A stretch of DNA of 40,942 bases from a virus (lineage: Duplodnaviria; Caudoviricetes). The notes beneath the pieces were generated by a model, which was not told where the DNA came from, made no database searches, and saw only the letters and a list, made by a program, of their open reading frames with translations. The translations under genes were made by a program, and so were the position numbers. The DNA is taken from positions 1 to 40,942 of the IMG/VR virus record IMGVR_UViG_3300037510_000114; one strand, written 5' to 3'. Below, piece after piece: positions 1,133 through 33,276 of this stretch. How positions within the stretch are numbered: the stretch's first letter is position 1; every line of letters begins with the position of its first letter.

Positions 1133-1590
1133 GTGACGCGGTCATGACGCAGGAGCCGGGGCTCTTCTATCCGTTCCTTCTGCGTTTTTGGGGCGGTGGC
1201 CAAGACAAGCTTGCGGCTCGCTATGGACTCGTCCAGAACGATGACGAGGCTTATGCGATGTGGTTCGAAACAGACGCAGCGCGGCGACAATTCATTGAGG
1301 CATACACGTACACGGATCCGATGGATACCGTCGTATTCGACGCCAAGGACCCATCAGGCGATGGCGACCCCTGGAAACAGACCATCGCGCGTGTCACGTT
1401 GCGCCTGCCGGATGGATCAACCAGAACCTACGATCAGAACTTCGGGTACGGCTACCCGTGGCATTCCGTCGAGTTCATGTATTACGACGGCAACTACTCC
1501 TGCGACTGCAATCGAGCCACGTTCGCTGGCATAGATGACGACATGCCGTGTGGCGATACGCTGGAACTAGTTCGGCTCGAACAGATCTAG
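1129..1590 (+). CDS. hypothetical phage protein (YSCDCNR motif)
   Basis: GAGGAG RBS, ATG 1129 coupled to the upstream stop. C-terminal GNYSCDCNR...MPCG Cys cluster. Converges on the late operon. Confidence 0.65.
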   Translation: MSDAVMTQEPGLFYPFLLRFWGGGQDKLAARYGLVQNDDEAYAMWFETDAARRQFIEAYTYTDPMDTVVFDAKDPSGDGDPWKQTIARVTLRLPDGSTRTYDQNFGYGYPWHSVEFMYYDGNYSCDCNRATFAGIDDDMPCGDTLELVRLEQI

Positions 1591-1599
1591 CCAGTCGGT

Positions 1600-1971
1600 C
1601 TAGCTCACCCCCACCAGATTCCGTACGTAGAACGACACGTTGTGGTTATGTTCCCCGCCTGAGAACACCACATGGAAGGCGAAGTAGCGCAGCTCCATGG
1701 GATTCGATCCCAAGATGACGGTATCGGCTGGATCCAGCGTGAAGGACAGGATCCCGCCCGTGACCAGCGTCCCGTTCCCCGTATTCAGCGCATTCTCGTT
1801 CTGCAAGCCGTTCACGATCGCGCCCACCGAATCGGTCAGCGTCACCGTCAACGCAGAGACCGCGCTCGGGTCGATCGGCGTGCCGGTCTGATCCTTGAGC
1901 ACGGCCCCATAGATGGCGGTGGACTTTTCCGGGATCGCATCCCCGGCAGAGAATCGGGTAATCGCTTCCAT
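1600..1971 (-). CDS. putative virion protein, BppU N-terminal/Ig-like beta-sandwich
   Basis: Pattern VLKDQTGTPID...LTVTL...GILSFTLDPADT resembles BppU-like baseplate domains. 1-nt overlap with the upstream gene. Confidence 0.5.
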   Translation of the reverse strand: MEAITRFSAGDAIPEKSTAIYGAVLKDQTGTPIDPSAVSALTVTLTDSVGAIVNGLQNENALNTGNGTLVTGGILSFTLDPADTVILGSNPMELRYFAFHVVFSGGEHNHNVSFYVRNLVGVS

Positions 1972-2201
1972 CAGATCGGCTCCAAGGTCTCGTCACGGAA
2001 GGACAGGGCTGACGTCAGGCTCTCGGAGGAGACCGTGATGGACGGCGTCAAGGTCTCAGCCGAGAACGAGAGGGCCGGCGTCAGCGTTTCGCCCGTGAAG
2101 GTGATGAAGTCATAGACGATCACCGTGAACGAGGCCGACGAATACGGCCCGAACGCACCAGGCACGAGGTAGCCGGACTGGACCGAGGCGTCGAGTAGCA
2201 T
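1971..2201 (-). CDS. small hypothetical protein with four 11-aa repeats
   Basis: FITFTGETLTP / ALSFSAETLTP / SITVSSESLTS / ALSFRDETLEP. Tightly packed between its neighbours. Confidence 0.65.
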   Translation of the reverse strand: MLLDASVQSGYLVPGAFGPYSSASFTVIVYDFITFTGETLTPALSFSAETLTPSITVSSESLTSALSFRDETLEPI

Positions 2202-2204
2202 CGA

Positions 2205-4547
2205 CTACGGCTCCGTCACAATGACCAGTTCGCGCGTCCGCGCCCCCGTGGCGCTGAACCGCAGCACGATCGTGTTGCCATTCAGGTCCGCTGCGGAGAG
2301 GTCGATCAGATACCAGCCATTCGACTTCTCGGTCGGCACATTCGTCGCCGGACTGAATCCGACCCCATCAATCATCCGCTGGGCCGCCACCGTTAGCCCC
2401 GTCGCGGGAGTTTTGCCGTCCGAGTCCAACACCATCAGGAACGGGAAGGCCGTCAGCGCCGTGTTCTTCTTGATCCCAGCCCCATCCGTCAGCGTGCGCG
2501 TGCCAGCCGCCCAGACCTGCGAGGGCGCCGCCTGCACCGCCGAATACAGATCCGATTGCACCCCGCTCATGACGCCCAGGTCGCTTGAGACGTCGCTCAG
2601 TAGGGAGTAGATATCCGAGACGCCCGATTGCGCCACCAGCAGGCGGCTGGCGTTCTGCCGGACCCCACTCAGGATGTCGCTCAGGTTCGAGGCGATCTCG
2701 AGGGCCACCGCCGAGGCGATATCGCTGATGGCGCTCTGGGTCAACGTGCCGGCGGCAATGGCTGAGCGAATGTCGCTCATACTGGACGCATCCACCGGCA
2801 CCCCGGCTGCCAGGGCTGAGATGACATCAGAGGTCAGCGCGGACAACTGCGAATCCGTGGCGACCCGTTTCGGCACACGCGACTGGAAGTCACTCTGCAT
2901 GTCCGACAGCAGGCTGTAGACATCCGAGATGCGGCTCTGGTTCAGGAGCACCCGGCTATTCGTCTGCTGGGCGGCGGAGGCCGCATCCGACGCCATCGAC
3001 GCCACCAGCACCAACTGGGAGCGGCCGGCGGGCTCGAGCGGGACCCGCGAGTTGAAGTTGCTGTTCAGGTCGGACAGCATCGAGTAGGTATCCGAGGCCT
3101 GCGATTGAATCAGCAGCACCCGCGAGTTCGCTTGCTGCGCGGCTGATAGGATGTCGCTCAGCCTCGAGGCCAAGACCTGATCCACCCGGCTGGCGATATC
3201 CGAGATGTCGGAGGTCGTGATCGTGGTCACCGCCGCGGCCACTGCACTGGCAATGTCGCTGATGTCGGACTGCGTCAGGTTGACGGTCACCGCCTGCACC
3301 GCGGATCGGATGTCACTCATCGTCGAGGCATCGAGCGCGATGCCCGCGGTGATGAGTGATCGGAGATCGCTGGCCACATCCGACAACTGACTGTTGCTGG
3401 CGACGAGCTTCGGCACGCGGCTCTGGAAGTCCGACTGCAGGTCGCTGACGTGCGAGCGGATATCGGACACGAACGACTGAATCACCAGTGCGCGAGAGTT
3501 GGTCTGCTGGGCCGCCGAGAGAATGTCCGAGATGTCCGAGGCCAAGACCGCTTGGACGCGCGAGGCGATATCCGAGATATCGGAGACGGTCAACGTCCCC
3601 GCCGAGCCAGCGGAGATCGCACTCCGTAGATCGGACATCGTCGAGGCGTTGAGCTGCACGCCCGTCGTGGTCATCAGCGACAGCAGATCAGAGAGCAGAT
3701 CCGAGGCCGAGGACCGGATGTCCGAGAGGAACGATTGCGCAACTAGCAACCGCGACGAGTTCAGTCGGACACCCGAGAGGATGTCTGAGACATCAGAAGC
3801 GAGCACGGCCTGCACCCGCGACGCGATATCGGAGATGTCCGAGACCGTGAGCACACCCGCAGGGCCGGCCGTGATCGCGCTACGGAGGTCTGACAGCGAG
3901 GACGCATTGAGTTGCACGCCTGTGACGGTCACGACCGACAGCAAATCTGACAGGAGATCCGACACCGACGAGCGGACGTCGGAGAGCACACCGCTCATAA
4001 CCACGAGGTATGACCGTAGATCCGAATGCAGGTCCGATAACTGCGAGTTCGTCGCGACGGCCTTGGGCACTCTCGACTGGAAGTCGGACATCAGATCCGA
4101 CAGCATCGAGTACGTGTCAGAGATTCGACTTTGATTGAGCAGGACGCGCGAATTGGCCTGCTGCGCAGCCGACGCGGCATCCGAGGCCATGGACTGGATG
4201 ACCGTCAGCGCCGACATGATGTCGCTGTCGTCGTTGTCCACGCACGACCACTGCATGATCTGTTCAGCGCATCCTGTCACACCAGCAAAGCGCGCCTGCA
4301 TCACGTCGAAGTTATTCTCCGTCGTCTTGAGCGTGACCCGGAACACCCCCGATCGGACAAGGCTAGCCAGCTTTGAGATCGCCCCGCTCGTCATCGCCGC
4401 GGACGTGCCGGTATTCATGCCGTAGAACTTGCGGGTGCCGGCATTGAACTGGCTCGCCGTCACGGCCGACTTGATCGACACGAAGTCTGTCGAATCGACC
4501 ATCGGTACGAACAGTTGGTGCAACGCGCCTTTCTTCGGGGCGGCCAT
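2205..4547 (-). CDS. Ser-Asp-rich helical repeat protein (putative fibre) with related N- and C-terminal globular domains
   Basis: 780 aa, GGAGG RBS. The central ~560 aa holds about 48 SD dipeptides in modular repeats. Confidence 0.8.
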   Translation of the reverse strand: MAAPKKGALHQLFVPMVDSTDFVSIKSAVTASQFNAGTRKFYGMNTGTSAAMTSGAISKLASLVRSGVFRVTLKTTENNFDVMQARFAGVTGCAEQIMQWSCVDNDDSDIMSALTVIQSMASDAASAAQQANSRVLLNQSRISDTYSMLSDLMSDFQSRVPKAVATNSQLSDLHSDLRSYLVVMSGVLSDVRSSVSDLLSDLLSVVTVTGVQLNASSLSDLRSAITAGPAGVLTVSDISDIASRVQAVLASDVSDILSGVRLNSSRLLVAQSFLSDIRSSASDLLSDLLSLMTTTGVQLNASTMSDLRSAISAGSAGTLTVSDISDIASRVQAVLASDISDILSAAQQTNSRALVIQSFVSDIRSHVSDLQSDFQSRVPKLVASNSQLSDVASDLRSLITAGIALDASTMSDIRSAVQAVTVNLTQSDISDIASAVAAAVTTITTSDISDIASRVDQVLASRLSDILSAAQQANSRVLLIQSQASDTYSMLSDLNSNFNSRVPLEPAGRSQLVLVASMASDAASAAQQTNSRVLLNQSRISDVYSLLSDMQSDFQSRVPKRVATDSQLSALTSDVISALAAGVPVDASSMSDIRSAIAAGTLTQSAISDIASAVALEIASNLSDILSGVRQNASRLLVAQSGVSDIYSLLSDVSSDLGVMSGVQSDLYSAVQAAPSQVWAAGTRTLTDGAGIKKNTALTAFPFLMVLDSDGKTPATGLTVAAQRMIDGVGFSPATNVPTEKSNGWYLIDLSAADLNGNTIVLRFSATGARTRELVIVTEP
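2541..4230 (-). repeat. degenerate protein-level repeat region (SD repeats)
   Basis: Recurrent modules such as SAAQQ[AT]NSRVLL.QS.[IA]SD.YS.LSD..S[DN]F.SRVP and ASTMSD.RSA...T.SDISDIAS.V. Confidence 0.85.
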
Positions 4548-4548
4548 G

Positions 4549-5154
4549 CTAGCCTCCAGTCACGACGATCAAGCCCTCAGCGAACAAAGGCCGGCCGTTA
4601 TACCAGGCGAACGTTTCGATCGTGTAGCCGGCTCTCGCCAGCAGCACACTCAGAGTCTTCCACGAATACCACGCGACATGATCTTTGTTCACGCACTCGA
4701 CCCCGCGCGCCAGTTGCGCCCGCCCCGCTTCTGCGAACGCGTTCGGCACGGTGATGATCACCGGCACGCCTTTATAGCGAGTTCGTAATCTGCGCAGAAA
4801 CTGGCCCGGGTTGCTCAGGTGTTCGATCACCTCGCCGCAGACGATCAGATCAACGTCCGCGTAGAACGGCAGGTGCAGATCCTGATTGTCCAGATCGATG
4901 CCGGTCACACCATCGCCATCTTCACGATCCCAGCCATAGGTCTTCGCCGCCACGGCCACGATCCGATCATGCATCGGGCCGGACGCCCCGACATCGAGCA
5001 CCGTGTGGCCCTTGCAGCGTTCCAAGATGAACGCCGAGCGATCAACCACCTCGGCGACCGGGACAGCATGCAGCATCTTCTTGGCGTACGCCTCTGAGAC
5101 TGGCGTAGCCTGTCCGAGTTGGCTGCGGAGATCGTCGATCGTGGCGTAGATCAC
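4549..5154 (-). CDS. class I SAM-dependent methyltransferase
   Basis: Motif I VLDVGASG plus DLIVCGEVIEHL and ITVPN, typical of Methyltransf_11/23 enzymes in glycan loci. GTG 5154 overlaps the GT stop (GTGA). Confidence 0.85.
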   Translation of the reverse strand: MIYATIDDLRSQLGQATPVSEAYAKKMLHAVPVAEVVDRSAFILERCKGHTVLDVGASGPMHDRIVAVAAKTYGWDREDGDGVTGIDLDNQDLHLPFYADVDLIVCGEVIEHLSNPGQFLRRLRTRYKGVPVIITVPNAFAEAGRAQLARGVECVNKDHVAWYSWKTLSVLLARAGYTIETFAWYNGRPLFAEGLIVVTGG

Positions 5155-6098
5155 AGATACCTCTGGTAGATGGCCGTCGCCTGTCTCACCGTCTCCTGAA
5201 CATCGTGCTTGCGCTCGGCCCATGCGCGGAAGTCGAACTGCCCCTTGGCCTCGTGCGCCTTGATGATCGCATCCGCCATTGATTCGGGCGTGAAGTCGCA
5301 TCGAAACGGGTACTCCTCATCTCGGTAGCCAGCGCCGATGAACGCCTTGCCGGCTCCGAAGGCTTCGATGCCTCTCGCAAAAAGAGGAAATAGCCCAGAC
5401 ACGACGATGTCAGCCCTGGAATACAGCAAGTTCACGTCTTCGTCTTTGACCGGTCCCATCAATGATCGCACGAACGTATGCCATTTCGCGTGCGCAATCA
5501 GCGCGCTGAACGTCTCGTACATCCGCTTATCTTCCACATTGAACAGGTGCATCCGCGCGTTCGGCAGCACCTGCGACACGCGCTCCATCGCCAGCAATGG
5601 AATCAGCGGATTGCGTTGCCCTCGCCAGTGCTCGCAGTAGAGCACCGCCGGATCGCCAGAGAGCCGAGACGCCGGATTCTTCGGATCATGCGCAGGCACG
5701 TCCAGAGGCGTGAACCTTTGTAGGTCGATGCCCTTCGGCACAACGTATGTGCGCTTGATAGCGTTCCATGCCGACCACTCCTCTTTGCGCATGGCGATGA
5801 ACGCTTCGCAGATCGGCGCTAGGTCGATGATCGCCTTCATCGAGACGCCATTGCCCACGCTCGACAATGGCTCGCCGTGGCAAAAAAGCAGCTTGGGAAT
5901 TCTGTCGTGATAGGTCCGCTGACTGATCTGGCTATGTATCAGATGAACATCAGGACGATCAATCCAACCATACAGCACTGTCTCGTCTGGTTGCCTGATC
6001 TCGACGCCATGTCCCTGCTGTTCTTCGGCCTTCACGAGTTCCAACGTCGTAAATGCTAAACCCGATTTTTCACGCTTAAGCCAGTGCCGTAGCTTCAC
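5151..6098 (-). CDS. glycosyltransferase, GT-B fold (GT4-like)
   Basis: GHGVEI, DVHLIHS, VVPKGIDLQRF, LLYSRADIVV, GIEAFGAGKAFIG. GTG 6098 overlaps the upstream stop (GTGA). Confidence 0.8.
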   Translation of the reverse strand: MKLRHWLKREKSGLAFTTLELVKAEEQQGHGVEIRQPDETVLYGWIDRPDVHLIHSQISQRTYHDRIPKLLFCHGEPLSSVGNGVSMKAIIDLAPICEAFIAMRKEEWSAWNAIKRTYVVPKGIDLQRFTPLDVPAHDPKNPASRLSGDPAVLYCEHWRGQRNPLIPLLAMERVSQVLPNARMHLFNVEDKRMYETFSALIAHAKWHTFVRSLMGPVKDEDVNLLYSRADIVVSGLFPLFARGIEAFGAGKAFIGAGYRDEEYPFRCDFTPESMADAIIKAHEAKGQFDFRAWAERKHDVQETVRQATAIYQRYL

Positions 6099-6826
6099 GC
6101 AGCCAGTCCCTTCCGAATCCCCAAGTTCGTCCCCAAGCGAATCCGATGAATGTTCTTCGTGACCTTGCCACCGCCCGTCTCTGGCTGGAAACTCGCCATC
6201 ACATGCACGATCGCCAATCCGAACGGATTCGTGCCGCTGCCGTAGTTCGAAATCAACGATCGGCTCCCGGCCGGCGTGACCGCCGCATTCGTGTCGAGCA
6301 GTGCCCACCCACCGTCGGCGCCATCAAAGGTGCGCCGCGTCGTGCTCGCACCCGCTGTTGGTGCCGAGCCACCGTCATATCCGCCATGCAGCAACACCAC
6401 CCAGCAGTTGTCGGCCACCGTCGTCAACGAAGTCGTGAGCGAGGTATCGGATGTGCTGCTGAAGTTCGTCGTCGTGTTGTCCGGTTGCGCGCTCTGCTTG
6501 ACCCCGGTATAGCTTACTGCACCGCCCTGGATCAGATGCGATGAACTGCACGTGATGACGACGTTGTGCGCCCCTGTCGCCGGCCCCAGGATGTAATAGA
6601 TGTACGAGATTCGGTCGCCGCCCGTGGTGCTCGTGATCTTCTGCGCCAGTGTCAGCGCCACACTGGCGTAGGTGACGGAGGACACGTCGTCGGCTCCGCC
6701 GAAGTTGTCTCCGGAGAAGCCGACGACCAGCAGCCCATTACTGCCGGTGCACGTGTGCGAGAAGGTCAGACTCGTCCCGGGATTAACCTTCCCGCCGTCG
6801 GTGGCCGCATCGAACGCAATCGCCAT
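6095..6826 (-). CDS. hypothetical Thr/Ser/Gly-rich beta protein, probably virion-associated
   Basis: 243 aa with two similar beta-rich halves (SLTFSHTCTGSNGLLVVG / SLTTSLTTVADNCWVVLL) and no signal peptide. Confidence 0.7.
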   Translation of the reverse strand: MAIAFDAATDGGKVNPGTSLTFSHTCTGSNGLLVVGFSGDNFGGADDVSSVTYASVALTLAQKITSTTGGDRISYIYYILGPATGAHNVVITCSSSHLIQGGAVSYTGVKQSAQPDNTTTNFSSTSDTSLTTSLTTVADNCWVVLLHGGYDGGSAPTAGASTTRRTFDGADGGWALLDTNAAVTPAGSRSLISNYGSGTNPFGLAIVHVMASFQPETGGGKVTKNIHRIRLGTNLGIRKGLAA

Positions 6827-6829
6827 CGA

Positions 6830-7072
6830 TTAGCCGCCCAGAATCTGGATCTCCGCTGGCACATCCACCGGAGAGACCGGGATCGGGGTCACGTCGTCGA
6901 AGCTCGAGTTGTTGATGATGATCTTCACGTGACTGACGTACCCGCCGACCCCGTTGGAGACATTCCCCGCCCACACCGATGCGCGCGTGGTGCCTGTGGG
7001 TAAGATCCCGCGGTTCACCAAGGCCGTCAGGAAGTCATCCGTCAGAATGTCGAGAATCTGCTGCTGCGCCAT
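6830..7072 (-). CDS. hypothetical protein
   Basis: 80-aa ORF ending 3 nt before the next gene, in operon orientation. Confidence 0.6.
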   Translation of the reverse strand: MAQQQILDILTDDFLTALVNRGILPTGTTRASVWAGNVSNGVGGYVSHVKIIINNSSFDDVTPIPVSPVDVPAEIQILGG

Positions 7073-7127
7073 GTGTTACGCGTTCCCTGTCGTGCTATCC
7101 GAATCTCCAGATCCGACCGTTGAACGA

Positions 7128-7201
7128 TCGGCGAGGCCCCCTCACAGTCAGTAACACACTGACCGTCCGCCTCCCTCAAGGTCCTGAGCGGACCTCGCCG
7201 A
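7128..7201. other. long intergenic stem-loop with internal hairpin
   Basis: TCGGCGAGG (7128-36) pairs with CCTCGCCGA (7193-7201), CTCA with TGAG, and there is an inner GTCAGT-aacac-ACTGAC hairpin (7147-63). Confidence 0.6.
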
Positions 7202-7215
7202 ATCTTTGCGCTGTC

Positions 7216-7527
7216 CTACACCGTGGGCGCCGGCGGCACCGACGGCACCGGATTGCTGCTGTCCACCGCGATGCCGTTCAGCGCCGTCCCGATGGCGTCG
7301 AGTCCGGTCGAGACCGTATCCAGCTTGGTCGTCTCGGCATCGAGCGTGGCCTTGACGGACGCCACGTCGGCCGGCGACATGGAGGTGTTGATCTTGTCGA
7401 TGAGCGCCGCGACGCGCGTCGAAACGCCGTCCACCGCCGTGCTCAGAGTAGCGACATGACCACCGAGGGTCGTCGTAGCCGTATCGACCGCATCGAGCGC
7501 GGCTTGGAAGTCCGGATTGATAGACAT
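7216..7527 (-). CDS. hypothetical helical/coiled-coil protein
   Basis: AAGGA RBS, heptad-like Ala/Thr/Asp helices and a Pro-rich tail. Confidence 0.7.
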   Translation of the reverse strand: MSINPDFQAALDAVDTATTTLGGHVATLSTAVDGVSTRVAALIDKINTSMSPADVASVKATLDAETTKLDTVSTGLDAIGTALNGIAVDSSNPVPSVPPAPTV

Positions 7528-7539
7528 GGTTAAATCCTT

Positions 7540-7755
7540 TTACGTGGTCGGTGGGTCCGGCGAGACCCGATCGAGTGTGTCCGCCGCTTCGCCGAGCGTG
7601 GTGCCCGCCTCCGTGATTCGCTGCGCATCCTTGGTGAGTGCGGCGATCACGGCAGGAGACGCGCTGGCATCGCCGCGGATCAACGCGACGAATGCCGTGA
7701 ATTCTTCGATACTCGTGATGACAAGATGGAAGCCCTGTCGATCGTGGCCGTTCAT
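7540..7755 (-). CDS. hypothetical protein
   Basis: 71 aa, AGGAG upstream, in operon. Confidence 0.6.
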   Translation of the reverse strand: MNGHDRQGFHLVITSIEEFTAFVALIRGDASASPAVIAALTKDAQRITEAGTTLGEAADTLDRVSPDPPTT

Positions 7756-7759
7756 GGAT

Positions 7760-8029
7760 TCAGGCTCCTGGTGATGTGGAGGGATCCGGGGCGCCCCACT
7801 TGTTGGCGATCGCCTGCGCGTGGGCGATCAGCTTGTCCGAATCCTCGCCCAGCTTCGCGATCCAGTAGGCGTCCGTCAGTTCCGCCGGCACAGGCGTGTT
7901 CGGATGATCGGCGACCCACTTATCCCGCGCCGACTTGAAGACCGCGAACAGGGTCAGGGCGCCCTGCAAGATGCCGGCGAGTTGATTCTCGCCCGTGATG
8001 ATGCTGCCGAGCGTGCCAGTTACAGACAT
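7760..8029 (-). CDS. hypothetical protein with N-terminal hydrophobic helix
   Basis: 89 aa, LAGILQGALTLFAVF, overlaps the end of the lipoprotein gene. Confidence 0.6.
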   Translation of the reverse strand: MSVTGTLGSIITGENQLAGILQGALTLFAVFKSARDKWVADHPNTPVPAELTDAYWIAKLGEDSDKLIAHAQAIANKWGAPDPSTSPGA

Positions 8030-8514
8030 ACGAGTGCCGTCCTTTCCAGATCGATGAGGTTATGCGCCGACGGCGGCGGGGGCAGGATGGCCAAAATGGT
8101 CAGCAGCGTATCGAAGATCGGCTGCAGGACGCCCCGCACGGTCGTCTTGATCTTCTCGTCCGTGATTTCATTGATCGCCGCATCGAGGGTGGACCGGATG
8201 CCGCTGACCGCACCCTGCACGCTCTTCCAGTTGTCCGCCGTCTGGCTCTTGCTATAGGCATCCAGCGCCGCCGAGAGGCCCTTCCCGCCGTGGCCGACCT
8301 TTTCCAGTGCCTTGGCCACGTTGCGCGTCACATCCTTCGGGACGATCGTCGGTGTCAAGCCATCGAGCACGCCCAGGGCGGTATCGGATGTCGTGATGAC
8401 TTGATCGGCCCCTTTGGCGATCTGGCCCGGGGGCGTGAGCGTTGGCGTCGGATTGCTGGCGCATCCAGCCATGCCGAGCACGCAGACGCAGAGTAGAACT
8501 CGAATCGTTCGCAT
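8020..8514 (-). CDS. lipoprotein (possible spanin-like lysis accessory)
   Basis: AGGAG RBS and ATG 8514. MRTIRVLLCVCVLGMAG-C is a lipobox-type signal, followed by a helical body and a hydrophobic C-terminal helix. Confidence 0.7.
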   Translation of the reverse strand: MRTIRVLLCVCVLGMAGCASNPTPTLTPPGQIAKGADQVITTSDTALGVLDGLTPTIVPKDVTRNVAKALEKVGHGGKGLSAALDAYSKSQTADNWKSVQGAVSGIRSTLDAAINEITDEKIKTTVRGVLQPIFDTLLTILAILPPPPSAHNLIDLERTALVCL

Positions 8515-8524
8515 AAAGGTTCTC

Positions 8525-8806
8525 CTACTTGGTATCCGGTGGTGTCGGCATAGCCGCCTGCCCCTTGACGTGCTCGCCGGTGTCGGCATCGACACGGGTG
8601 ACGACGCGATTGTTGGGCGTGACGGCGCCCCGATTAAACATGGCCAGAAAGGCACTGAGTGCCATCATGGCGCCGGCCATCTGCTGATCGCTCCAATGGA
8701 TCACACCAAAGAGGACGAGGGCCAACGCAATCTGGCGCACCGCCTCAAGCAGCGACGTCGGATTACTCGTCACAGTGTCCGTGATCCAATCCCAAAACTT
8801 CTGCAT
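8525..8806 (-). CDS. holin-like small membrane protein
   Basis: Two hydrophobic helices (IALALVLFGVIHW; MAGAMMALSAFLAMF) followed by R..VTP, similar to r1t/SPP1-like holins. Confidence 0.55.
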   Translation of the reverse strand: MQKFWDWITDTVTSNPTSLLEAVRQIALALVLFGVIHWSDQQMAGAMMALSAFLAMFNRGAVTPNNRVVTRVDADTGEHVKGQAAMPTPPDTK

Positions 8807-8821
8807 GCTGTCCCTTCTGTC

Positions 8822-9127
8822 CTATCGTCCTTCGTACGTCTGCATGACCGGCTTCGGTCCGACGCCACCGATCGCCGCGTGATTGGTGCGCGAGAAGTAG
8901 AACCCGACGACCGTCCCGAACGCCACCGCCATGATGGTCGGAATCTGCTCACCGGACACCGTCATAAACGCCTTCACCATCGTGGCACCCACTACTAGTA
9001 GGGCAATGACTGATTGCGTGTACTCCCAGATCAGGTTGACCTTCCGCTGGCCGGCCGTGACGAGGTCTTCCTGAGCTGTCGTCTTCGGCGGTAGGGGCTG
9101 TTCAGCGACAGCTAGCGGCGTAGTCAT
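8822..9127 (-). CDS. holin-like 2-TM membrane protein
   Basis: VIALLVVGATMV and IMAVAFGTVVGFYFSR. The latter motif is common in phage holin-like proteins. Confidence 0.6.
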   Translation of the reverse strand: MTTPLAVAEQPLPPKTTAQEDLVTAGQRKVNLIWEYTQSVIALLVVGATMVKAFMTVSGEQIPTIMAVAFGTVVGFYFSRTNHAAIGGVGPKPVMQTYEGR

Positions 9128-9128
9128 G

Positions 9129-9314
9129 TCATCGCCTCAGAATGAGCGGCCCACCACCGTAGAGCCCCAGCGCCTGCACCAAAATGAGGATCAGAATGAT
9201 GATGAAGATCACCTGCACGATGATCGGGAAGGGCGGGGGCAGCGGCAGTTGCAGCACGGCCCAGTAGATCAGCCCCAAGATCAGGATAGTCACCAAAAGT
9301 CCAATTAATCCCAC
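9129..9314 (-). CDS. small hydrophobic 2-TM protein (Thivi_2564-like pattern)
   Basis: AAGGAG RBS and GTG start. LLVTILILGLIYWAVLQLPLPPPFPIIVQVIFIIILILILV. Confidence 0.7.
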   Translation of the reverse strand: MGLIGLLVTILILGLIYWAVLQLPLPPPFPIIVQVIFIIILILILVQALGLYGGGPLILRR

Positions 9315-9359
9315 CGTAATCTCCTTTGCGATGCTCTCTCACCAAAGACTACATATCAG

Positions 9360-9368
9360 TGTTATAGT
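9360..9368 (+). promoter_or_regulatory. putative extended -10 promoter for a leaderless HNH transcript
   Basis: TG-t-TATAGT ends 6 nt before ATG 9375 with no SD. It is flanked by an AGACTA/TAGTCT inverted repeat (9346-51 / 9365-70). Confidence 0.45.
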
Positions 9369-9374
9369 CTAAGC

Positions 9375-10139
9375 ATGAGACAGCTCATTGACCTCACTGG
9401 GCAACGATTTGGACGGCTTACAGTTGTCGAACGAGCGACCACTGGCCGCCCACATAGAGCGTACTGGACGTGCCGATGCGATTGTGGTGCTACTCGCGTG
9501 GTGCATTCGCAACCATTGAGAGACGGACGCACCAAGAGTTGCGGGTGCCTTCAGCGCGATGTCTTGCGAAAGAGATTGCTTACTCACGGCAAGAGTCGCA
9601 CGTCCGAACATCAGATCTGGGGCAGCATGAAATCCAGGTGCCACAACCCCAGGGACCACGCGTTTCGCTATTACGGCGAGCGAGGAATAACAGTCTGCCA
9701 GCGTTGGCGCGATTCGTTTGAGGCATTCCTGTCCGACATGGGCACTCGTCCCTCGAAGCTCCATTCGATCGAACGTCGCGACAATAATGGACCGTACTCT
9801 CCTGAGAATTGTCGCTGGGCGACTCGCTCTGAACAGATGAGCAATATCAGGACGAATCGACTCGTGACAGTTAACGGTCAAACGTTTCCGTTTTCCGAAT
9901 GGCGCAGGCGTTCTGGCCGATCGAGTCTCCAGTACCGTCTGGACACCGGATGGTCCCCGGAAAGAGCGGTAGCAACAGAACCAAAACCAATTCGCAAGCT
10001 GACCATAGATCAGGTTAGAGACATTCGAGAGCGATGTTCCAAGGGCCAAACACAGACGTCGGTTGCTCGTATCTATGGCGTGGATCCATCTGCGATCAGC
10101 AATGTCGTTCGCCGCAGGAATTGGGCTCACGTTGACTAA
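9375..10139 (+). CDS. HNH homing endonuclease with C-terminal HTH
   Basis: DLTGQRFGRLTV..WTCRCDCG..SCGC, WGSMKSRC.NP....YYGERGI.VC.RW, SIERRDNNGPYSPENCRWAT and a C-terminal HTH (QTSVARIYGVDPSAIS). Opposite strand to the operon and visibly less GC-rich. Confidence 0.9.
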   Translation: MRQLIDLTGQRFGRLTVVERATTGRPHRAYWTCRCDCGATRVVHSQPLRDGRTKSCGCLQRDVLRKRLLTHGKSRTSEHQIWGSMKSRCHNPRDHAFRYYGERGITVCQRWRDSFEAFLSDMGTRPSKLHSIERRDNNGPYSPENCRWATRSEQMSNIRTNRLVTVNGQTFPFSEWRRRSGRSSLQYRLDTGWSPERAVATEPKPIRKLTIDQVRDIRERCSKGQTQTSVARIYGVDPSAISNVVRRRNWAHVD

Positions 10140-10157: not shown

Positions 10158-11318
10158 TCAGTGAACGATTTCCAACACGCGGCAACCAGGTAGCCCGTAG
10201 CTCTCCCCGGTCAGCCGCCAACCCGCACCGATACTCACGATGCCGGGATCGTCCCCGCCGACAATCACCACGCCGCCGTTCGATCCGTTGATGCCGGCGT
10301 ACGCCCGCACGGCTCGCCCCTCGTCGAAGTTCTGCACAGGTGACGAGGCCCATCCTCCGTGCCCGTTGCTGTTCTGATAGCTGCTTCGCTGGCCGTGCAG
10401 GTAGCCGTCCATCGCCTGGAAGCCTCGGACGAAGGCATCCGCGCTCGCATCCTGTGTTGGGCCGACCGGATAGCTGATGTGCAGGCCATCTTCGAAGTGA
10501 TAGATCGCGCCCACCTCGAACAGCCGCGACAAGGCCCCGAGACAGAGGAATGCGGCTGGATCGTTGAGCCGTTGCCCGGGCGTTCCAGGTTCCGCTGCGC
10601 CGATCGGCTCATTGTTGACGACGGCCTTCCCGGTTGCGTCGGAGACAGCCTGCATCTCGCGCACGCGGCGGACTTGGTTCCACATGTCCCGTCCGCGATC
10701 AAGATGGACGGTCACGTAGTCGCCACCGCCGAACATGGTCGATTCGTCGTCTTGAGCGGCCCCGTAGGCAATCAGGCCGGTATAGCCGGCACGGCGCGCG
10801 AGGTCTCGCAACTCAGCGAGGAAGTTGGTGTCCGTCAGCGCCGGATTCTGGGTCTGGTGATACAACTCGTTGCCCAGCTCGAGCCCGAATACTTCCGGCC
10901 GTCCCGCGCAGATGGCCGCCACCATTTCGACATGCTGACGGATCTCGTCCTTCGACATGTTCGCGGTGTCGGTGCAGGCGGTCACCTCGCATCGCAACCC
11001 TCGCGCCTTGCCCATGTCGAGCACACCCGGCAGCGCCGCACGCGCCTGTGCTGCTGTCGCGCCATCGAAGGTCAGGTTGCCAGCGAACACGCGGAAGCCG
11101 TTGAAGCCTTTCTTGCGTCCCCAGTTGAGGAATGCTTCGCTCGGCTTGTTGGCACCAAGGATCGACAGCGCCGAGAAGAACAACGGCCGGAACACCCCGC
11201 CGTCGTCCACGAACAGCTTGCCATCGCGACGCACGAAGCCCTTGATCGCAGGACCCGACACGATCGGCGCGCTACCACCGCGGCCGGCGAGTAGCAGGAA
11301 CAGGTCCGCAGCCTTCAC
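10158..11318 (-). CDS. putative glycoside hydrolase, GH-A clan TIM barrel (GH5-like)
   Basis: GGAGG RBS and GTG overlapping the upstream TAG. GFNGFRVF, ELGNE (acid/base-like), VTVH, VVNNEP (nucleophile-like). Confidence 0.6.
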   Translation of the reverse strand: MKAADLFLLLAGRGGSAPIVSGPAIKGFVRRDGKLFVDDGGVFRPLFFSALSILGANKPSEAFLNWGRKKGFNGFRVFAGNLTFDGATAAQARAALPGVLDMGKARGLRCEVTACTDTANMSKDEIRQHVEMVAAICAGRPEVFGLELGNELYHQTQNPALTDTNFLAELRDLARRAGYTGLIAYGAAQDDESTMFGGGDYVTVHLDRGRDMWNQVRRVREMQAVSDATGKAVVNNEPIGAAEPGTPGQRLNDPAAFLCLGALSRLFEVGAIYHFEDGLHISYPVGPTQDASADAFVRGFQAMDGYLHGQRSSYQNSNGHGGWASSPVQNFDEGRAVRAYAGINGSNGGVVIVGGDDPGIVSIGAGWRLTGESYGLPGCRVLEIVH

Positions 11319-11569
11319 TACTGGCCTCCGATGATCACGGGCCAGACGTTCCCGCCAGGCGTGAAGATCAGCAAGTTGCCATCGCGCTCGCCGACCTCGT
11401 ACTCCCCCGTCGTCCCGGCCGCGCGCGTCTGGTAGTCGCCATTCGGCTGCACCGACAGCACCGAGCCGTCCGCCGTGCTGACCGTATAGCGGTTGCCGTC
11501 TACCTGATTCAGCGATCCGGGCAGGAACCCGGTGATGTCCTTGCCGATCGGCCGATTCGAATACACCAT
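11318..11569 (-). CDS. small beta-rich hypothetical protein
   Basis: GGGAGA RBS and ATG 11569. VLSVQPNGDYQTRAAGTTGEYE. Confidence 0.7.
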   Translation of the reverse strand: MVYSNRPIGKDITGFLPGSLNQVDGNRYTVSTADGSVLSVQPNGDYQTRAAGTTGEYEVGERDGNLLIFTPGGNVWPVIIGGQ

Positions 11570-11583
11570 CTGTCTGCTCTCCC

Positions 11584-11774
11584 ACCGCAAAACAAAAGAC
11601 CGCTGGGCTCACGCCTCAAAAGGCGCAATTCCACAGCGGTCCTGTCTGTGCGGTCCTTGTATGTATCCCCCGGGCTGGACCTCAGCCCTTCGTCGATCGG
11701 TTCATGAGGCCGATCCAGGGGGAACCTTGCTATTAAACGATCCGGGCGTTTCCTTTAACTGGACGTGTCCGGAT
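11584..11774 (-). promoter_or_regulatory. structured leader: hairpin, three-way junction and terminator-like stem with U tract
   Basis: Paired arms ACCGCA/TGCGGT, GACCGCTG/CAGCGGTC, CGCCT/AGGCG, TCCCCC/GGGGGA, GGGCTG/CAGCCC, GATCGG/CCGATC and ATCCGG/CCGGAT fill almost the whole gap. Confidence 0.55.
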
Positions 11775-11785
11775 TAAAGATCGCT

Positions 11786-12178
11786 TCACTCGACGACCTC
11801 GCCGTCTCCATCGTGACGCCGCGGCTTAGCCGCTTTGGGCCTACCAGGAGCTACGGTTACCGGTCCCTCACTGTCCATCCAGCCGACGGCGTCGGAGGCG
11901 CTTCCGAACGTTGCTGAGAACTCCGACTTCTTCCACTCAGGTAATTGATCGCCCTTGTCAGCAATCTCACGCGCCAACCTGTACAGAGCCTCGTATTCTT
12001 TGCGAGCATCAACCCCACGATCGAAGTCATGCAGGAGCGTCCGCAACGCATGCTGTGGGCATATATTGACGTGCGTCTCTGGCGGCCCATCTGACGAACA
12101 CCACAGACAGCCGATGCGGTCGCACTGAGCGATCAGCTTTCTGGCCGTCTCGATGGCGAATTGTGCTTGGTCGGTCAT
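11786..12178 (-). CDS. hypothetical protein with Cys/His cluster
   Basis: ATGA coupling to the upstream gene. GCLWC...H...CP.H. Confidence 0.6.
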   Translation of the reverse strand: MTDQAQFAIETARKLIAQCDRIGCLWCSSDGPPETHVNICPQHALRTLLHDFDRGVDARKEYEALYRLAREIADKGDQLPEWKKSEFSATFGSASDAVGWMDSEGPVTVAPGRPKAAKPRRHDGDGEVVE

Positions 12179-13926
12179 GGCTGCACCGCCACGGGTCGCT
12201 TGTTGCCGCTCCGATCCTCGCCCTTCGCGTTCTTCAGCGAGACGTATAGCGATCCGTTCACGATCTCCACCTTGCCCCGAACGTCATTGAAGCGGTCGTG
12301 AAACTCCACCGCCCAGGGCTGGCCCGGCCGGATAGCGGTCCCATAGCTGTCGATCGTCACGCCCGGTGCATTCATCTCGTCTTCTCCCGCGATCGGCCCG
12401 TAGGGCTGCGGCCTCGGCGCTACGACAAAGGCTTCCGTCCCAGTGAATGGCACCGGCTGTGTGTGCTGGACCATGGCGCCCTTGTGCCACATCTCCCAGC
12501 GGATCTCTCGCATGTTGCGATCATAGTACGAATACTCGATATCGTTGTCGTCAACGGACGCGTCGTAGGTGTGTCGGTAGACGACCTCCACGCCCTTGAA
12601 GACAGCACGGCCGACCTCAAAGGCCATACTGACGCGTTTCGGATCGCCGGTCGCCTTCCCCGCGATCGCGTGATGGCGCCAGCGAAACTCGCAGTCGTAG
12701 GTGACCGACCAGCCCGACGTTCCGACAAGCGGAAACCAGAGTCTCGCCTTGTCGAAATACATCCAGTCGTTCAGCCCGTTGATCTTCTGGCCTGTTGAGG
12801 AGTCCGCCAGCAGACCGACGTTGTTGGTTACCGGATCAAGGTCGAGCCATGCCCCGACATCGCCCTGCGGATCGTTCTCGACCGGATCGCCCTTGCGGAA
12901 CCAAAAGACGTTGCCCTGTCGTGCGGTGGCGGTTGCCTGCCACGATGCACGGATGTCGAATGGAGTCCAGACCGGACCGGACTTCCAGGGAATGTCCGGC
13001 AGCGTCGCCGGCACGGCTGGATCAGGCACCGGGATGCGCGCGGTGTCAATCGGGACGACATGCACCTGAAGTGGCGTTGAACGCCCCAAGTTCGCGCTGC
13101 CAGCCACGACGTAGGCCCCATGCGTGTCCCATTCAGCGACGCAGATGGTATCCGCTGGAAACGCCGTCAGGACAATGCATTCCGCCTCGGAACGCCACTT
13201 CCCATTAGTGCCAAATGTCAACCGCCGCCCCAGCACCATCGGTTCGTCGATTCGGTTGTTCGTGGACGACCACGCCCAGACTTCCCCGTCAACCGTGTGG
13301 ACGAGTCTCGCGACGCCTTCCTTGCCCCAGGGCGCCACCGAAATGTCGTGGATCATGCCATCGGGCGTGATCATCTTGGCGGGTCCGTAGTAGCCGTACG
13401 TGATCCAGCCATGCGTCGAGATCTGGAATTCGTTTGCCTCGGTAGGCTTGGGTGCGCTCCAGTCAAGGACGCCGTTCAGATAGACCTCGAAGGTCACGTT
13501 GTCGCGGACCGTCAGCAGGAACTGACCGGCCATGCGGACCGATGTGACGCCTGTCGTAAGCAGCCGATTATCGAATGCAACCCGACGCGCAGCCGTGAAC
13601 GCGCTCGCCCAGTGACTTCCGCTTGCCTCAAATTCATTCGCTGCGACGAAGAACGGATCGTCACCCGTGGGCGGGATGTTGGCGTCGAAGGCACGGAGAT
13701 CAGCCACGAAGCGCTGAGCCGTGACCGCGCTGACTGGCCTGATCCACGTCACGTGATCGTCGTCGATGAACCGCAGCGAACGTCCCGATCCGATCGGCCA
13801 GATGGCGGCCGGATTCGGCACATGGACAACCTGCAGAGACGTATTCCCGAAAGCCACTTTCTGGCCATCCGGGCTGATCGCCTGCACGTTGCCTTCCGGC
13901 TCGAAGGTGTAGACCAGCGTGCTCAC
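12175..13926 (-). CDS. large hypothetical beta-rich protein (N-terminal beta-propeller-like)
   Basis: GTG 13926 overlaps the upstream stop (GTGA). AISPDGQKVAFG is a WD40/TolB-like blade motif, and there are Pro-rich linkers between domains. Confidence 0.7.
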   Translation of the reverse strand: MSTLVYTFEPEGNVQAISPDGQKVAFGNTSLQVVHVPNPAAIWPIGSGRSLRFIDDDHVTWIRPVSAVTAQRFVADLRAFDANIPPTGDDPFFVAANEFEASGSHWASAFTAARRVAFDNRLLTTGVTSVRMAGQFLLTVRDNVTFEVYLNGVLDWSAPKPTEANEFQISTHGWITYGYYGPAKMITPDGMIHDISVAPWGKEGVARLVHTVDGEVWAWSSTNNRIDEPMVLGRRLTFGTNGKWRSEAECIVLTAFPADTICVAEWDTHGAYVVAGSANLGRSTPLQVHVVPIDTARIPVPDPAVPATLPDIPWKSGPVWTPFDIRASWQATATARQGNVFWFRKGDPVENDPQGDVGAWLDLDPVTNNVGLLADSSTGQKINGLNDWMYFDKARLWFPLVGTSGWSVTYDCEFRWRHHAIAGKATGDPKRVSMAFEVGRAVFKGVEVVYRHTYDASVDDNDIEYSYYDRNMREIRWEMWHKGAMVQHTQPVPFTGTEAFVVAPRPQPYGPIAGEDEMNAPGVTIDSYGTAIRPGQPWAVEFHDRFNDVRGKVEIVNGSLYVSLKNAKGEDRSGNKRPVAVQP

Positions 13927-14048
13927 AGTGCTTCTCGAATCACAATGCCATTCAACTTGAACGCCTCGATCGCCGCTTCGCTCTGGCTGTCGGCCTGGAT
14001 CAACCACACTCGCCCCGAGGCCGGAATAGCGATCCAGAAGAACCTCAC
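13923..14048 (-). CDS. 41-aa hypothetical protein
   Basis: GTGA overlaps at both ends: VRFFWIAIPASGRVWLIQADSQSEAAIEAFKLNGIVIREAL. Confidence 0.5.
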   Translation of the reverse strand: MRFFWIAIPASGRVWLIQADSQSEAAIEAFKLNGIVIREAL

Positions 14049-14320
14049 CGCGTCACCTGAAAGGACCGCGATGCAGCCGTCCGATCCATGCAGCCCTCGA
14101 TCGTCTCGATCTCCGCCATCCAGACGTCGGCGCCGAGCTTCGTCGGCTGCACCAACACCCCCGGCAGGAATTGCAATCCCGTCCCGGTTAGCGTCCACGG
14201 ACTCGCCGGCGGCGGGACGCTCTTCTGATACACGCTCACCCGCTTGATCGCCGTGCCCGGTATTGCCAGAAACGGTGGCGTCACCCGGACCAGGATCGTG
14301 ACTTGGTCGCCCTGATGCAC
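14045..14320 (-). CDS. hypothetical beta-sandwich protein
   Basis: 91-aa ORF in operon. Start is uncertain because the frame stays open upstream. Confidence 0.5.
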   Translation of the reverse strand: MHQGDQVTILVRVTPPFLAIPGTAIKRVSVYQKSVPPPASPWTLTGTGLQFLPGVLVQPTKLGADVWMAEIETIEGCMDRTAASRSFQVTR

Positions 14321-14370
14321 AAACCGCGGCCATGGCTCGAGGATCGTGATCCGCGGCTGATGCTCCGGTC

Positions 14371-14829
14371 CTAGGGCGTCGCCACTGGGCCCACGGCAGC
14401 CGGTCGCGGCGCCTGGCGGCTGGGCTGCCCAAAAGGGTTGCCGGCTGGGTACCTCGCAAACAACCCAGCATCCTCACCATTCACCGTCAGCACCGAAATG
14501 TATTCCTGCCCGATGGGCGTCGCGAAGAGCGTCGGGAGCGACGACTTGTTGACGATGATGATCTTGTTGGGCCCGGCATAACTGGGCTTACCCAGACTCT
14601 GCGACTGCACGGGTGCGCACGTCGCCGCATCGCTGCCCTTGACGCAGTATCCGATGGTGTAGCCGCTGACGACCGGCGTGCCGAGATCCAGCGCGTCATG
14701 ATCGGGACTCGCGACGAAACAGAGCTGCGTCGGCGAGACAACGGTGCCGCTTGGCGCCGTTGGGCAGGTCTGCGCCTGCGCGGTCGCCGCGATCCCCAGA
14801 ACACTCAACAGACAAACCAATCGCTTCAC
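14371..14829 (-). CDS. secreted protein (Sec signal peptide)
   Basis: GAAGGAG RBS and GTG start. VKRLVCLLSVLGIAATAQA|QT, with four Cys in the mature part. Confidence 0.75.
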   Translation of the reverse strand: MKRLVCLLSVLGIAATAQAQTCPTAPSGTVVSPTQLCFVASPDHDALDLGTPVVSGYTIGYCVKGSDAATCAPVQSQSLGKPSYAGPNKIIIVNKSSLPTLFATPIGQEYISVLTVNGEDAGLFARYPAGNPFGQPSRQAPRPAAVGPVATP

Positions 14830-14842
14830 GGGTTGATCTCCT

Positions 14843-16687: not shown

Positions 16688-16906
16688 TCACTTCCCTACC
16701 TCGTGCCGTCTCCGATACACCAAGCGTTCGGCCCCAGCGCCTCTCCTAAACGGCCGTCCTTCCACATCCCCGTTCACGTAGAGCTGTTGCGCGTATTGTG
16801 TTCGTGGCCCGATCAAGGATGGACTGTCATGCCCGCCATCCCAGTAGATCACGAGTTCTTCGCCGTCGGGGCCGTGAACGACATCACCACGCGCCATCGC
16901 GATCAT
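16688..16906 (-). CDS. hypothetical protein
   Basis: ATGA overlap with the endolysin stop (MIAMARGDVVHGPDGEELVIYWDGG). Confidence 0.5.
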   Translation of the reverse strand: MIAMARGDVVHGPDGEELVIYWDGGHDSPSLIGPRTQYAQQLYVNGDVEGRPFRRGAGAERLVYRRRHEVGK

Positions 16907-17292
16907 CCAATCAGTTCGATGTGTGGAAAATCGCGTATCGCTTGAAAGCGACCTCCCCAGGTTAGTCCCAGAGCCTCCGCACACGCGCCATACGTCGCCC
17001 ATGGCATCTTGTCGTCCCACGTCGGACGCCCGTTCGCATCCACAAATGCGAGATCAACAGCGTGACCCAAGCCGTCTTCGTGCGGCTGGTGATTCGACTT
17101 CTTCGCATAGCCGTCCGCATTCGTCACGATCTTTCCGGGCTTCGTCCGACCTTGCTCGTAGAGCGCATGCTGTTCCTCAGCGGTTCTCACACCGTCGGTG
17201 ACCACCATTGGATGACCCAGGGCGTTCATCGCCATCAAGATGCGATGCACCTTATCGATCAGTTCCGGATGGACGCCTTCGAGCTTGTTCAT
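16903..17292 (-). CDS. endolysin, M15 family L-Ala-D-Glu peptidase (CwlK/Ply500-like)
   Basis: LEGVHPEL, VTDGVRTAEEQHALYEQGRTKPG.IVTNA, SNH...GHAVD, WGG.F..IRDFPHIEL, giving Zn ligands H/D/H. Confidence 0.93.
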   Translation of the reverse strand: MNKLEGVHPELIDKVHRILMAMNALGHPMVVTDGVRTAEEQHALYEQGRTKPGKIVTNADGYAKKSNHQPHEDGLGHAVDLAFVDANGRPTWDDKMPWATYGACAEALGLTWGGRFQAIRDFPHIELIG

Positions 17293-17465: not shown

Positions 17466-17891
17466 TCAGTGCTCCCGCCCACGTTCGTGAATTTTGAACC
17501 GAAACCGTCGCGGCTTCATATTGATGACGACGTGCATGAACGAGAAGATGGTGATGGGCTTAATGATATAGCCTGCGGCCCCCAACATCCGCGCCGTATC
17601 TTCAGATTCTTTATCTTCAGCGCGTGATAGCACCACGAGCTGCGTCCGATCGAGATGCTTGTGATGCTCGCGAATCTCTTTGATCAACTCGAATCCTGAC
17701 ATGCCCGGTAAGACGAGATCGATCAGAATCAGCCCCGGCCGCTCGAGTTGCCCGGTATGGAGACGCACCAACAGTTCTTCCCCTCGCGAGAGGTAGGTGA
17801 ACGAGTTGTCCACCATGTCTTCGATCTGCGTCTGAATCATCCGCCGATCGACCGGGTCATCATCCACGACCACAATAGGGACAGGCTGCAT
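17466..17891 (-). CDS. single-domain response regulator (CheY/Rcp1-like receiver)
   Basis: IVVVDDD, LILIDLVLPGMSGFELIKEIR (phosphoacceptor D), VVLS, GAAGYIIKP. Alternative start is GTG 17906. Confidence 0.9.
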   Translation of the reverse strand: MQPVPIVVVDDDPVDRRMIQTQIEDMVDNSFTYLSRGEELLVRLHTGQLERPGLILIDLVLPGMSGFELIKEIREHHKHLDRTQLVVLSRAEDKESEDTARMLGAAGYIIKPITIFSFMHVVINMKPRRFRFKIHERGREH

Positions 17892-17898
17892 CGTCGTG

Positions 17899-27736: not shown

Positions 27737-27917
27737 CGTTCACTCGCTTTTGTCCGCTCGACGCAGACATAGGACGAGGTGGCCGCAGGGCGTGCTCGTC
27801 TTCATGAGAATGGGACATAACCCCAGGTTGGGCGTCACGCCACTGCAGTACTTCCTTACCAAGCGCGATCAGATGCCGGCCGATCGCCCCTACGAGCCGA
27901 TGCGTTGATGGCGTCAT
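27729..27917 (-). CDS. small hypothetical protein
   Basis: ATGA overlap with the GT stop (MTPSTHRLVGAIGRHL...) and overlaps the tail tube start. Confidence 0.45.
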   Translation of the reverse strand: MTPSTHRLVGAIGRHLIALGKEVLQWRDAQPGVMSHSHEDEHALRPPRPMSASSGQKRVNDV

Positions 27918-33259: not shown

Positions 33260-33276
33260 GTCGTCTCCTTCAGGGC

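Follow-up and report, generated by a model that had tools for sequence, protein, structure and literature searches.

The sequence analysed here (the window, 40,942 nucleotides) was the whole of the virus record IMGVR_UViG_3300037510_000114, with a completeness estimate of 74%. It contained a module comprising a tagged cargo gene, a GT4-like glycosyltransferase (GT), an S-adenosylmethionine (SAM)-dependent methyltransferase (MTase) and a long Ser-rich fibre. We put the probability at about 60% that the GT sugars serines on the outer face of a trimeric fibre and that the MTase caps the sugar. These phages likely sugar-coat their own fibre, since a predicted three-stranded fibre with an almost all-Ser outer face is encoded directly behind the GT and the MTase and this linkage was repeated in dozens of phages. 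The module is likely a portable one for fibre O-glycosylation, in which the acceptor, the sugar, the methyl target and the location on the virion are what we infer. An initial annotation of the window had described a tight run of six open reading frames (ORFs); all six were present on the minus strand (Table 1), with junction gaps of −4 (GTGA, beta protein/GT), −4 (GTGA, GT/MTase), +1, +3 and −1.

Loci carrying the module were gathered by scanning viral, metagenome and genome collections with the GT as anchor, and by further scans anchored on the fibre. The 104 GT loci were reduced to 77 by clustering at 95% identity and comprised clade 1 (59 representatives) and clade 2 (17, after locus L099 was taken out by hand). 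L099 has a 53-aa GT fragment, binned with clade 2 by identity, and its locus contains the MTase and a Ser-Asp (SD) fibre. On the GT tree (quick search, midpoint-drawn), clade 2 formed 17 rows with an SH-aLRT of 100. Where at least 2.5 kb downstream of a clade-1 GT was available (n = 29), a fibre was found in 29/29 loci, this MTase in 28/29, and at least four SD-Φ (Φ, hydrophobic) per 100 rod residues in 28/29. With at least 300 nt downstream, the MTase was present in 47/50; the remaining three had another MTase (L009) or another ORF followed by the contig end (L040 and L056). Three of the 21 fibre-anchored loci began inside the gene, and both GT and MTase were found in all 18 others (15 distinct by count). 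Co-occurrence of the SD protein with GT and MTase in viral metagenomes, which the initial annotation had put forward as a check, was therefore seen in both directions. As a control, 19 loci were collected with a profile of the Ig-like domain: 16 had the GT, one was cut off upstream, and the two without a Ser rod (6% Ser) had neither GT nor MTase.

Clade 2 was arranged differently. Among 11 loci with at least 300 nt downstream, the MTase was found in none (0/11) and a fibre with the same N-domain family in all (11/11), nine of these fibres beginning within 34 nt of the GT. Judged by this gene content, the methyl cap appears to be optional across the GT family. The clade-2 rod motif was [ST]-I-L-x-D-T, with Ser still opposite the hydrophobic seam (192–195 degrees), and the GT loop after H-G-E-P differed from that of clade 1. 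SD-Φ was also seen in the clade-2-type fibres of L067 and L110.

A different MTase family replaced this one in L009, L142 and L144 and joined it in L146. Beside the alternative MTase was a family of 187–241-aa ORFs with a conserved H-D-D (L009:8391–8957, L142:4601–5164, L144:6930–7505 and L146:8605–9330), GT-A-like by eye, with no Pfam match and no meaningful PDB match. Sugar-pathway genes were found as cassette inserts, namely a UDP-glucose dehydrogenase (L049) and a Gfo/Idh/MocA oxidoreductase (L079). HNH-like ORFs, recognized by eye, were inserted at the cargo/GT or GT/MTase junctions, lying upstream of the GT in L008, L036, L045, L049 and L101 and downstream in L040 and L088.

Neighbours of the module included three different capsid families, Ad3/Hc3 connectors with ejection proteins, and major tail proteins, indicating that it moves between virion types (long- and short-tailed phages). 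In other phages the fibre was often located between capsid and head-tail genes. A scan of 185,579 species genomes detected three loci, all among phage structural genes. Two related, non-identical module copies with downstream structural genes (L087 and L089) were found on one 36-kb contig in a bacterial metagenome-assembled genome, and may be two phages or a chimera.

The initial annotation had counted about 48 SD dipeptides in the 780-aa fibre. We found 49, of which 48 were within residues 105–675, far beyond shuffled sequences (mean 11.3, sd 2.9, maximum 23 in 10,000 shuffles). In this region Ser preceded 48 of the 54 Asp. The SD pairs were encoded with all six Ser codons and were never tandem, being spaced by 3, 4, 7, 14, 17 or 21 residues, and no significant internal repeat was detected in the fibre by BLAST. 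Among 19 late proteins counted in the window, the SD excess was limited to the fibre; enrichment in other late proteins was considered and rejected, 17 of the 18 others having 0–3 SD and the tape measure 10 versus 5.9 expected.

Scoring of 7,995 candidates yielded 371 relatives of the fibre, and the motif statistics given here are from the 120 of them that were listed. Their 5,973 SD pairs included no SDSD, as in the window fibre, and compared with 396 TD, 240 AD and 58 SE. Around SD, position +2 was I, L, V, M or F in 88%, +4 was Ser in 82%, +6 was again I, L, V, M or F in 77%, and −3 was Ser in 55%. The resulting family motif, S-D-Φ-x-S-x-Φ, is a heptad pattern. Ser was centred 193–200 degrees from the hydrophobic seam (R 0.90–0.93). 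If the hydrophobic positions are taken as heptad a and d, Ser would fall at b and f and Asp at c. Rods of the family contained 19.1% Ser, 0.8% Glu and 1.6% Lys, versus 7.1, 4.5 and 6.5% in the window tape measure. DUF496/YeeX labels on fibre relatives were below cut-off and were discarded as spurious.

In the monomer model, a confident beta-sandwich at residues 1–104 was followed by ~460 helical residues in 15 segments and then by a second beta domain. The two end domains aligned to one Ig-like family, and the hydrophobic periodicity peaked at 3.5–3.67. Self-association was modelled with three copies of residues 1–330 only, the copy number being assumed. An in-register parallel bundle was obtained with a score of 0.48, versus 0.00 for the best of three controls; the score mark was met by 20/30 solved homodimers and 1/23 single chains, a calibration on two copies that is rough for three. 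At least 26% of contacts were common to the runs, with a pLDDT of at least 63. At residues 107–207, the confident interface contained 3/23 Ser and 2/11 Asp versus 23/34 I, L, V, M or F; exposure of the residues outside it is uncertain and not proven. On these models the fibre is predicted to be a trimeric coiled coil capped by Ig-like domains, with Ser and Asp on the outer face, in keeping with the fibre-like architecture first proposed for the 780-aa protein.

Foldseek matches of the fibre N-domain were unnamed phage proteins, BppU N-terminal domains or minor tail proteins, all weak (best E 1.7e-4; 8e-4 to 6e-3 for the BppU and minor tail matches), and Atlas grouped the domain with viral clusters. 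Searched against the PDB, the fibre model gave nothing at E ≤0.001 and weak Ig domains only. The C-terminal modules varied across the family, in four rough classes by pattern. The maximum 19-residue hydropathy of the fibre (1.33) was mid-rod and both ends are Ig-like domains; by hydropathy and end domains no signal peptide or cell-wall anchor was found, a dedicated signal-peptide predictor not having been run.

The GT was modelled as a two-domain GT-B protein (pLDDT 89.9, pTM 0.87). Its best Foldseek match was MshA (E 1.8e-15), and BshA ranked top by VIA-align (Z 26.2, rmsd 3.1, 298 aligned). Other fold neighbours were sucrose-phosphate synthase, PimA, GtfA (4pqg, Z 22.8), T4 alpha-glucosyltransferase (Z 20.5) and SdgB (Z 20.1). 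Such mixed neighbours indicated that the fold gives the enzyme class and not the acceptor. On the strength of the model we assign the protein as a GT4-type GT-B enzyme with two Rossmann domains, and the GT-B call of the initial annotation stood. GT4-type GT-B enzymes have a C-terminal E-x7-E motif; at this site only the second Glu (E245) was invariant, and position −8 was Phe/Tyr. The window GT had no match in Pfam, including PF00534 (Glycos_transf_1); its clade-2 relative L016 passed PF00534 (35.9 bits, cut-off 26.4). A profile of the GT alignment gave no match among PDB sequences at E up to 1. Relatives numbered 876 among 1,518 candidates, and the family was compact: in a set of 1.84 billion representatives clustered at 50%, 12 scored below 1e-30, and most of these were fragments. 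The GT had no strongly hydrophobic segment (maximum 19-residue hydropathy 1.53).

The MTase matched Methyltransf_23 (PF13489) at 38.5 bits (cut-off 27, E 1.2e-9). Residues G56, A57, G59 and D76 of its Gly-rich SAM motif were invariant in 33 sequences, and His/Glu columns were also conserved. From its sequence the protein is thus assigned to the class I SAM methyltransferases, as had been predicted. Its nearest solved chains were 3cc8 (E 1.9e-8) and 2p7h, both uncharacterised, followed weakly by UbiG (E ~0.01). No match to the CheR or PIMT family was found, the best being Methyltransf_23 and small-molecule O-methyltransferases. There were 547 relatives among 2,037 candidates.

At its C-terminus, the product of the gene that precedes the GT (in most cases with a 4-nt overlap) carried G-G-G-R-T-T-K-N-T-x4-L-G-x3-G, a feature that the initial annotation did not mention. 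A profile of this C-terminal tag was run on 59 loci, selected because upstream DNA was available; it was seeded from the same loci, so that its scores are circular and the positions are not. The tag was found directly upstream of the GT in 37 loci and within 2.5 kb in nine more (46/59), once per locus and nowhere else. The 13 loci without a match included the window's twin, a 56.8-kb contig with GT and fibre identical to the window's. Tag codons varied synonymously, indicating that the tag acts as a protein. The 37 tagged cargos formed 30 unlinked groups, some being fragments, and a scan of 27 of them gave two LamG, three weak matches and 22 without any. When all viral contigs were scanned with the tag pattern, 19 matches were obtained. 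Eight proved to be genuine C-terminal tags; each lay upstream of this GT, on a contig that the GT scans had already found. The other 11 did not read as a tag and were without the GT.

The tail of the window cargo had 9/20 identities to the tag consensus, a value reached by 17 of 100,000 shuffles. With the tag HMM it scored 2.7 bits (reached by 188 of 5,000 shuffles) and was below detection in the 59-locus profile search. A tail like it (88% over 26 aa) was found on a LamG cargo of a close relative. From these comparisons the window tail appears to be a divergent copy of the tag. The cargo itself was assigned to viral clusters (score 0.97) and to no Pfam family, and relatives of its domain were upstream of the GT in only two other loci (L024 and L036). 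The initial annotation had included this beta protein in the module. Its coupling to the GT was upheld, but its domain is exchangeable cargo and the tag is the shared part. The tag may dock the cargo on the fibre or recruit the GT.

Several observations weigh against glycosylation of the fibre. The full-length monomer model was weak overall (pLDDT 59.4). The 120 homologues were selected by likeness to the query, so that sharing of the motif is partly by construction. Polar residues of any amphipathic helix face outward, so the phase of Ser alone is expected and only its dominance is unusual; the Ser stripe also fades in L142 and L144 (R 0.53 and 0.45). The closest GT folds (BshA, sucrose-phosphate synthase and PimA) act on small molecules, and GtfA and SdgB rank lower. 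The MTase was absent from all 11 informative clade-2 loci, the contrast between clades is one split and not many independent ones, and in L067 an SD-Φ rod (3.4 per 100) accompanies a clade-2 GT that has no MTase next to it. The GT and the fibre N-domain were uncorrelated in pairwise identity (Spearman 0.02, 33 loci; 0.46 for GT and MTase). Finally, no match to the GT or fibre was detected in 50,697 GenBank phage records; for the GT (tblastn, E 1e-3), remote homology to the GTs of mycobacteriophages Che8, Corndog and Myrna is possible.

Some of these points would suit a Ser/Asp stripe that is structural, serving side-by-side packing of trimers or metal or water binding, with the GT and MTase modifying another target such as the tagged cargo, or making a small glycoside. 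The enzymes closest to the GT in fold have small-molecule substrates, the GT and N-domain distances are uncorrelated, and the tag, directly upstream of the GT in 37/59 loci, contains Thr. We consider this unlikely: most Thr are lost from the window's tag, the Ig-domain proteins without a Ser rod have no GT (2/2), the rod motif shifts with the GT clade, and Thr and Ala are rare before Asp (the TD and AD counts above), though Ala would pack as well. Somewhat less probable again is that the GT sugars the fibre Ser while the MTase leaves the sugar uncapped and forms an ester on the adjacent surface Asp of the coiled coil, as CheR does on chemoreceptor Glu. Loci with Asp at +1 (clade 1) have the MTase, and those with Asp at +4 (clade 2) lack it. 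The SD frame also resembles the chemoreceptor methylation consensus as quoted in PMC6391922, [ASTG]-[ASTG]-x(2)-[EQ]-[EQ]-x(2)-[ASTG]-[ASTG], and small residues occupy −3 at 65% of the SD sites and +4 at 85%. However, all four flanking positions are small in just 19% of sites, the family matches of the MTase point to small-molecule O-methyltransferases and not to CheR or PIMT, and SD-Φ rods exist without this MTase (L067 and L009).

The modified fibre might instead be released at lysis as a decoy or have an intracellular role, and so not belong to the virion. The window fibre is indeed at the far end of the late operon, past lysis-type genes, and its position varies among tail types. Such a role seems improbable, as the N-domain is like phage structural-protein domains (the weak BppU N-terminal and minor tail matches and the viral clusters noted above) and the fibre is often between capsid and head-tail genes. 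Action of the GT on phage DNA or on the host envelope (lysogenic conversion), the fibre being an incidental neighbour, could explain the T4 alpha-glucosyltransferase among the fold matches and would fit a phage that is probably temperate, judged by the integrase of the twin contig. We hold it to be the most improbable of these alternatives. A fibre followed the GT in 29/29 and 11/11 informative loci, the GT lacks a strongly hydrophobic segment, no base-hydroxymethylase was found among 45 ORFs scanned in the window (a record estimated to be 74% complete), and the few loci in species genomes were all among phage structural genes.

For fibre glycosylation, the preferred reading, the following mechanism is proposed. 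The GT would move a sugar from a host nucleotide sugar to the rod Ser, the adjacent Asp may be part of its recognition signal, and the MTase would cap the transferred sugar, both enzymes presumably acting in the cytoplasm late in infection. The coated fibre would be a virion appendage held to the particle by its N-terminal Ig-like domain, on which tagged cargo may dock as a binding tip. With 460–580 rod residues at 0.148 nm, it would be ~70–85 nm long and have up to ~350 Ser per trimer. The coat would most likely guard a long, helix-poor fibre against proteases and aggregation, or adjust how strongly the fibre sticks to cells and particles. The shield, host-glycan mimic or adhesin role put forward in the initial annotation would be a candidate function. 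More tentatively, the module may be a plug-in appendage kit of long- and short-tailed environmental phages, with a heptad O-glycosylation code (Ser at b and f, Asp at c), a small dedicated GT, a methyl cap and swappable lectin-like or enzymatic cargo attached through a 25-residue tag, with the rod motif and the acceptor loop changing along with the GT clade.

If fibre glycosylation is correct, phage virion glycosylation, described for capsid and tail-tube subunits of mycobacteriophages, would extend to a dedicated, densely modified fibre. Clustered at 90%, the relatives number 876 for the GT and 371 for the fibre, so that hundreds of phages not in culture would be covered. The GT would be a compact enzyme of one subunit that O-glycosylates protein at a sequon on a helical face, and the tag a natural peptide for fixing cargo to a fibre.

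Table 1. The six-gene run and other features of the window
Feature	Position	Strand	Description
Cargo gene	6095–6826	−	243 aa, beta-rich phage protein; last ~26 aa a probable divergent copy of the module's C-terminal tag
GT-B, GT4-like glycosyltransferase	5151–6098	−	315 aa, GTG start, soluble; predicted model and fold matches
Class I SAM-dependent methyltransferase	4549–5154	−	201 aa, GTG start; PF13489 match
Fibre	2205–4547	−	780 aa; N-terminal Ig-like domain 1–104, segmented helical rod ~105–675 (119 Ser), C-terminal second Ig-like domain of the same family
Small ORF, coupled	1971–2201	−	76 aa; no Pfam/PHROG match; not a conserved part
Small ORF	1600–1971	−	123 aa; no Pfam/PHROG match; not a conserved part by sequence
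HNH endonuclease	9375–10139	+	Inside the late operon, on the opposite strand
Three large ORFs	10158–16678	−	484, 610 and 611 aa; no Pfam/PHROG match
Probable endolysin	16903–17292
Response-regulator receiver protein	17466–18035	−	PF00072
Second glycosylation-type cassette	27914–30681	−	GT2, methyltransferase, cytidylyltransferase-like, GT-B (PF13524)
Two Thr-rich ORFs	32789–33756	−	156 and 159 aa, 12–13% Thr

The six-gene run formed the last part of the late operon, beyond the lysis-type genes. Pfam and PHROG scans detected, on the minus strand, terminase, portal, S49 protease, major capsid, head-tail, tape-measure and holin-like genes, indicating a long-tailed phage; the integrase carried by the twin contig indicated that it is probably temperate. 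No family above cut-off was found in Pfam, PHROG or NCBIfam for the GT, fibre, beta protein or small ORFs, and a promoter and terminator scan of window positions 1200–9500 gave no signal above shuffled sequence. The two small downstream genes, which the initial annotation had counted in the module, were dropped from it: the 76- and 123-aa ORFs had sequence matches only in the twin contig and one close relative. The 123-aa product may resemble small Ig-like phage adaptors.

The second glycosylation-type cassette of the window lies between the tail terminator and a gene that we take to encode the tail tube, and it was not found beside the module in other loci. It could modify the tail or capsid, or extend the fibre glycan. 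The two Thr-rich ORFs come right after the major capsid gene; they are possible head decoration proteins and candidate acceptors for this cassette. The receiver protein is encoded between tail genes and the probable endolysin. The three large ORFs are in the lysis region, the first two having L091 relatives by eye.

A literature search, with limited coverage of subscription papers, found no description of this module. Serine-rich repeat (SRR) proteins have alternating S-x repeats, are modified by GtfA/GtfB and are exported by SecA2/Y2. The phage module shares with them a dedicated GT4-type enzyme whose gene neighbours that of a Ser-rich, fibre-like substrate (a candidate one in the phage), but its rod has Ser at heptad spacing and it has no export system. 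Fibritin-type fibres of T4 are segmented trimeric coiled coils with an N-terminal attachment domain, without a serine stripe or linked enzymes. The phage fibre is predicted to be alike in its segmented trimeric helical rod and N-terminal attachment domain; no sequence or fold match between it and fibritin was found in PHROG and Foldseek searches.

In staphylococci, SdgA/SdgB act with the SDR adhesins (PMC3794999; PMC8561734), and an inserted DUF1975 domain of SdgB is described as binding SD peptides (PMC8561734). The reaction of this staphylococcal system is O-GlcNAc transfer to Ser. As far as these articles describe the system, the two share a GT-B enzyme, a Ser next to Asp as candidate site and a long surface stalk. 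The adhesins, however, have long tandem (SD)n, whereas the phage fibre has no SDSD and is a predicted coiled coil; the phage module also has no export or cell-wall anchor and includes an MTase. The GT model aligned over 292 residues to the 502-residue SdgB chain, and at only 315 aa the GT has no room for the ten-strand DUF1975 insert. The structural likeness to ClfA/Sdr proposed in the initial annotation was thus not borne out: the predicted coiled coil has a heptad Ser stripe in place of an (SD)n tract, and its GT is too small for DUF1975.

Among viruses, phage-encoded GTs of mycobacteriophages Che8, Corndog and Myrna have been proposed to decorate their own particle (Freeman et al. 2023, as cited in PMC12363180, PMC12619734, PMC10877033 and PMC12582341), as is proposed here. 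According to those citing articles, the mycobacteriophage system modifies capsid and tail-tube subunits; the present module has a single dedicated fibre, with hundreds of sites, as its candidate acceptor, and links it to an MTase and tagged cargo. Host-dependent methylation of a phage tail protein is also on record (PMC13445384). In chlorovirus PBCV-1, A064R/A061L are described as a virus GT and SAM methyltransferase giving O-methyl-capped particle glycans, and mimivirus fibrils as glycosylated (PMC9614988). By that description they are similar in having a virus-encoded GT with a SAM methyltransferase and glycosylated fibrils, but they are eukaryotic giant viruses with a GT-A domain and with capsid N-glycans or polysaccharides. 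Set beside these systems, the module is real, widespread and phage-associated, and the chemistry that we infer for it would make it a variant of two known things, dedicated protein O-glycosylation and the glycosylation of virions.

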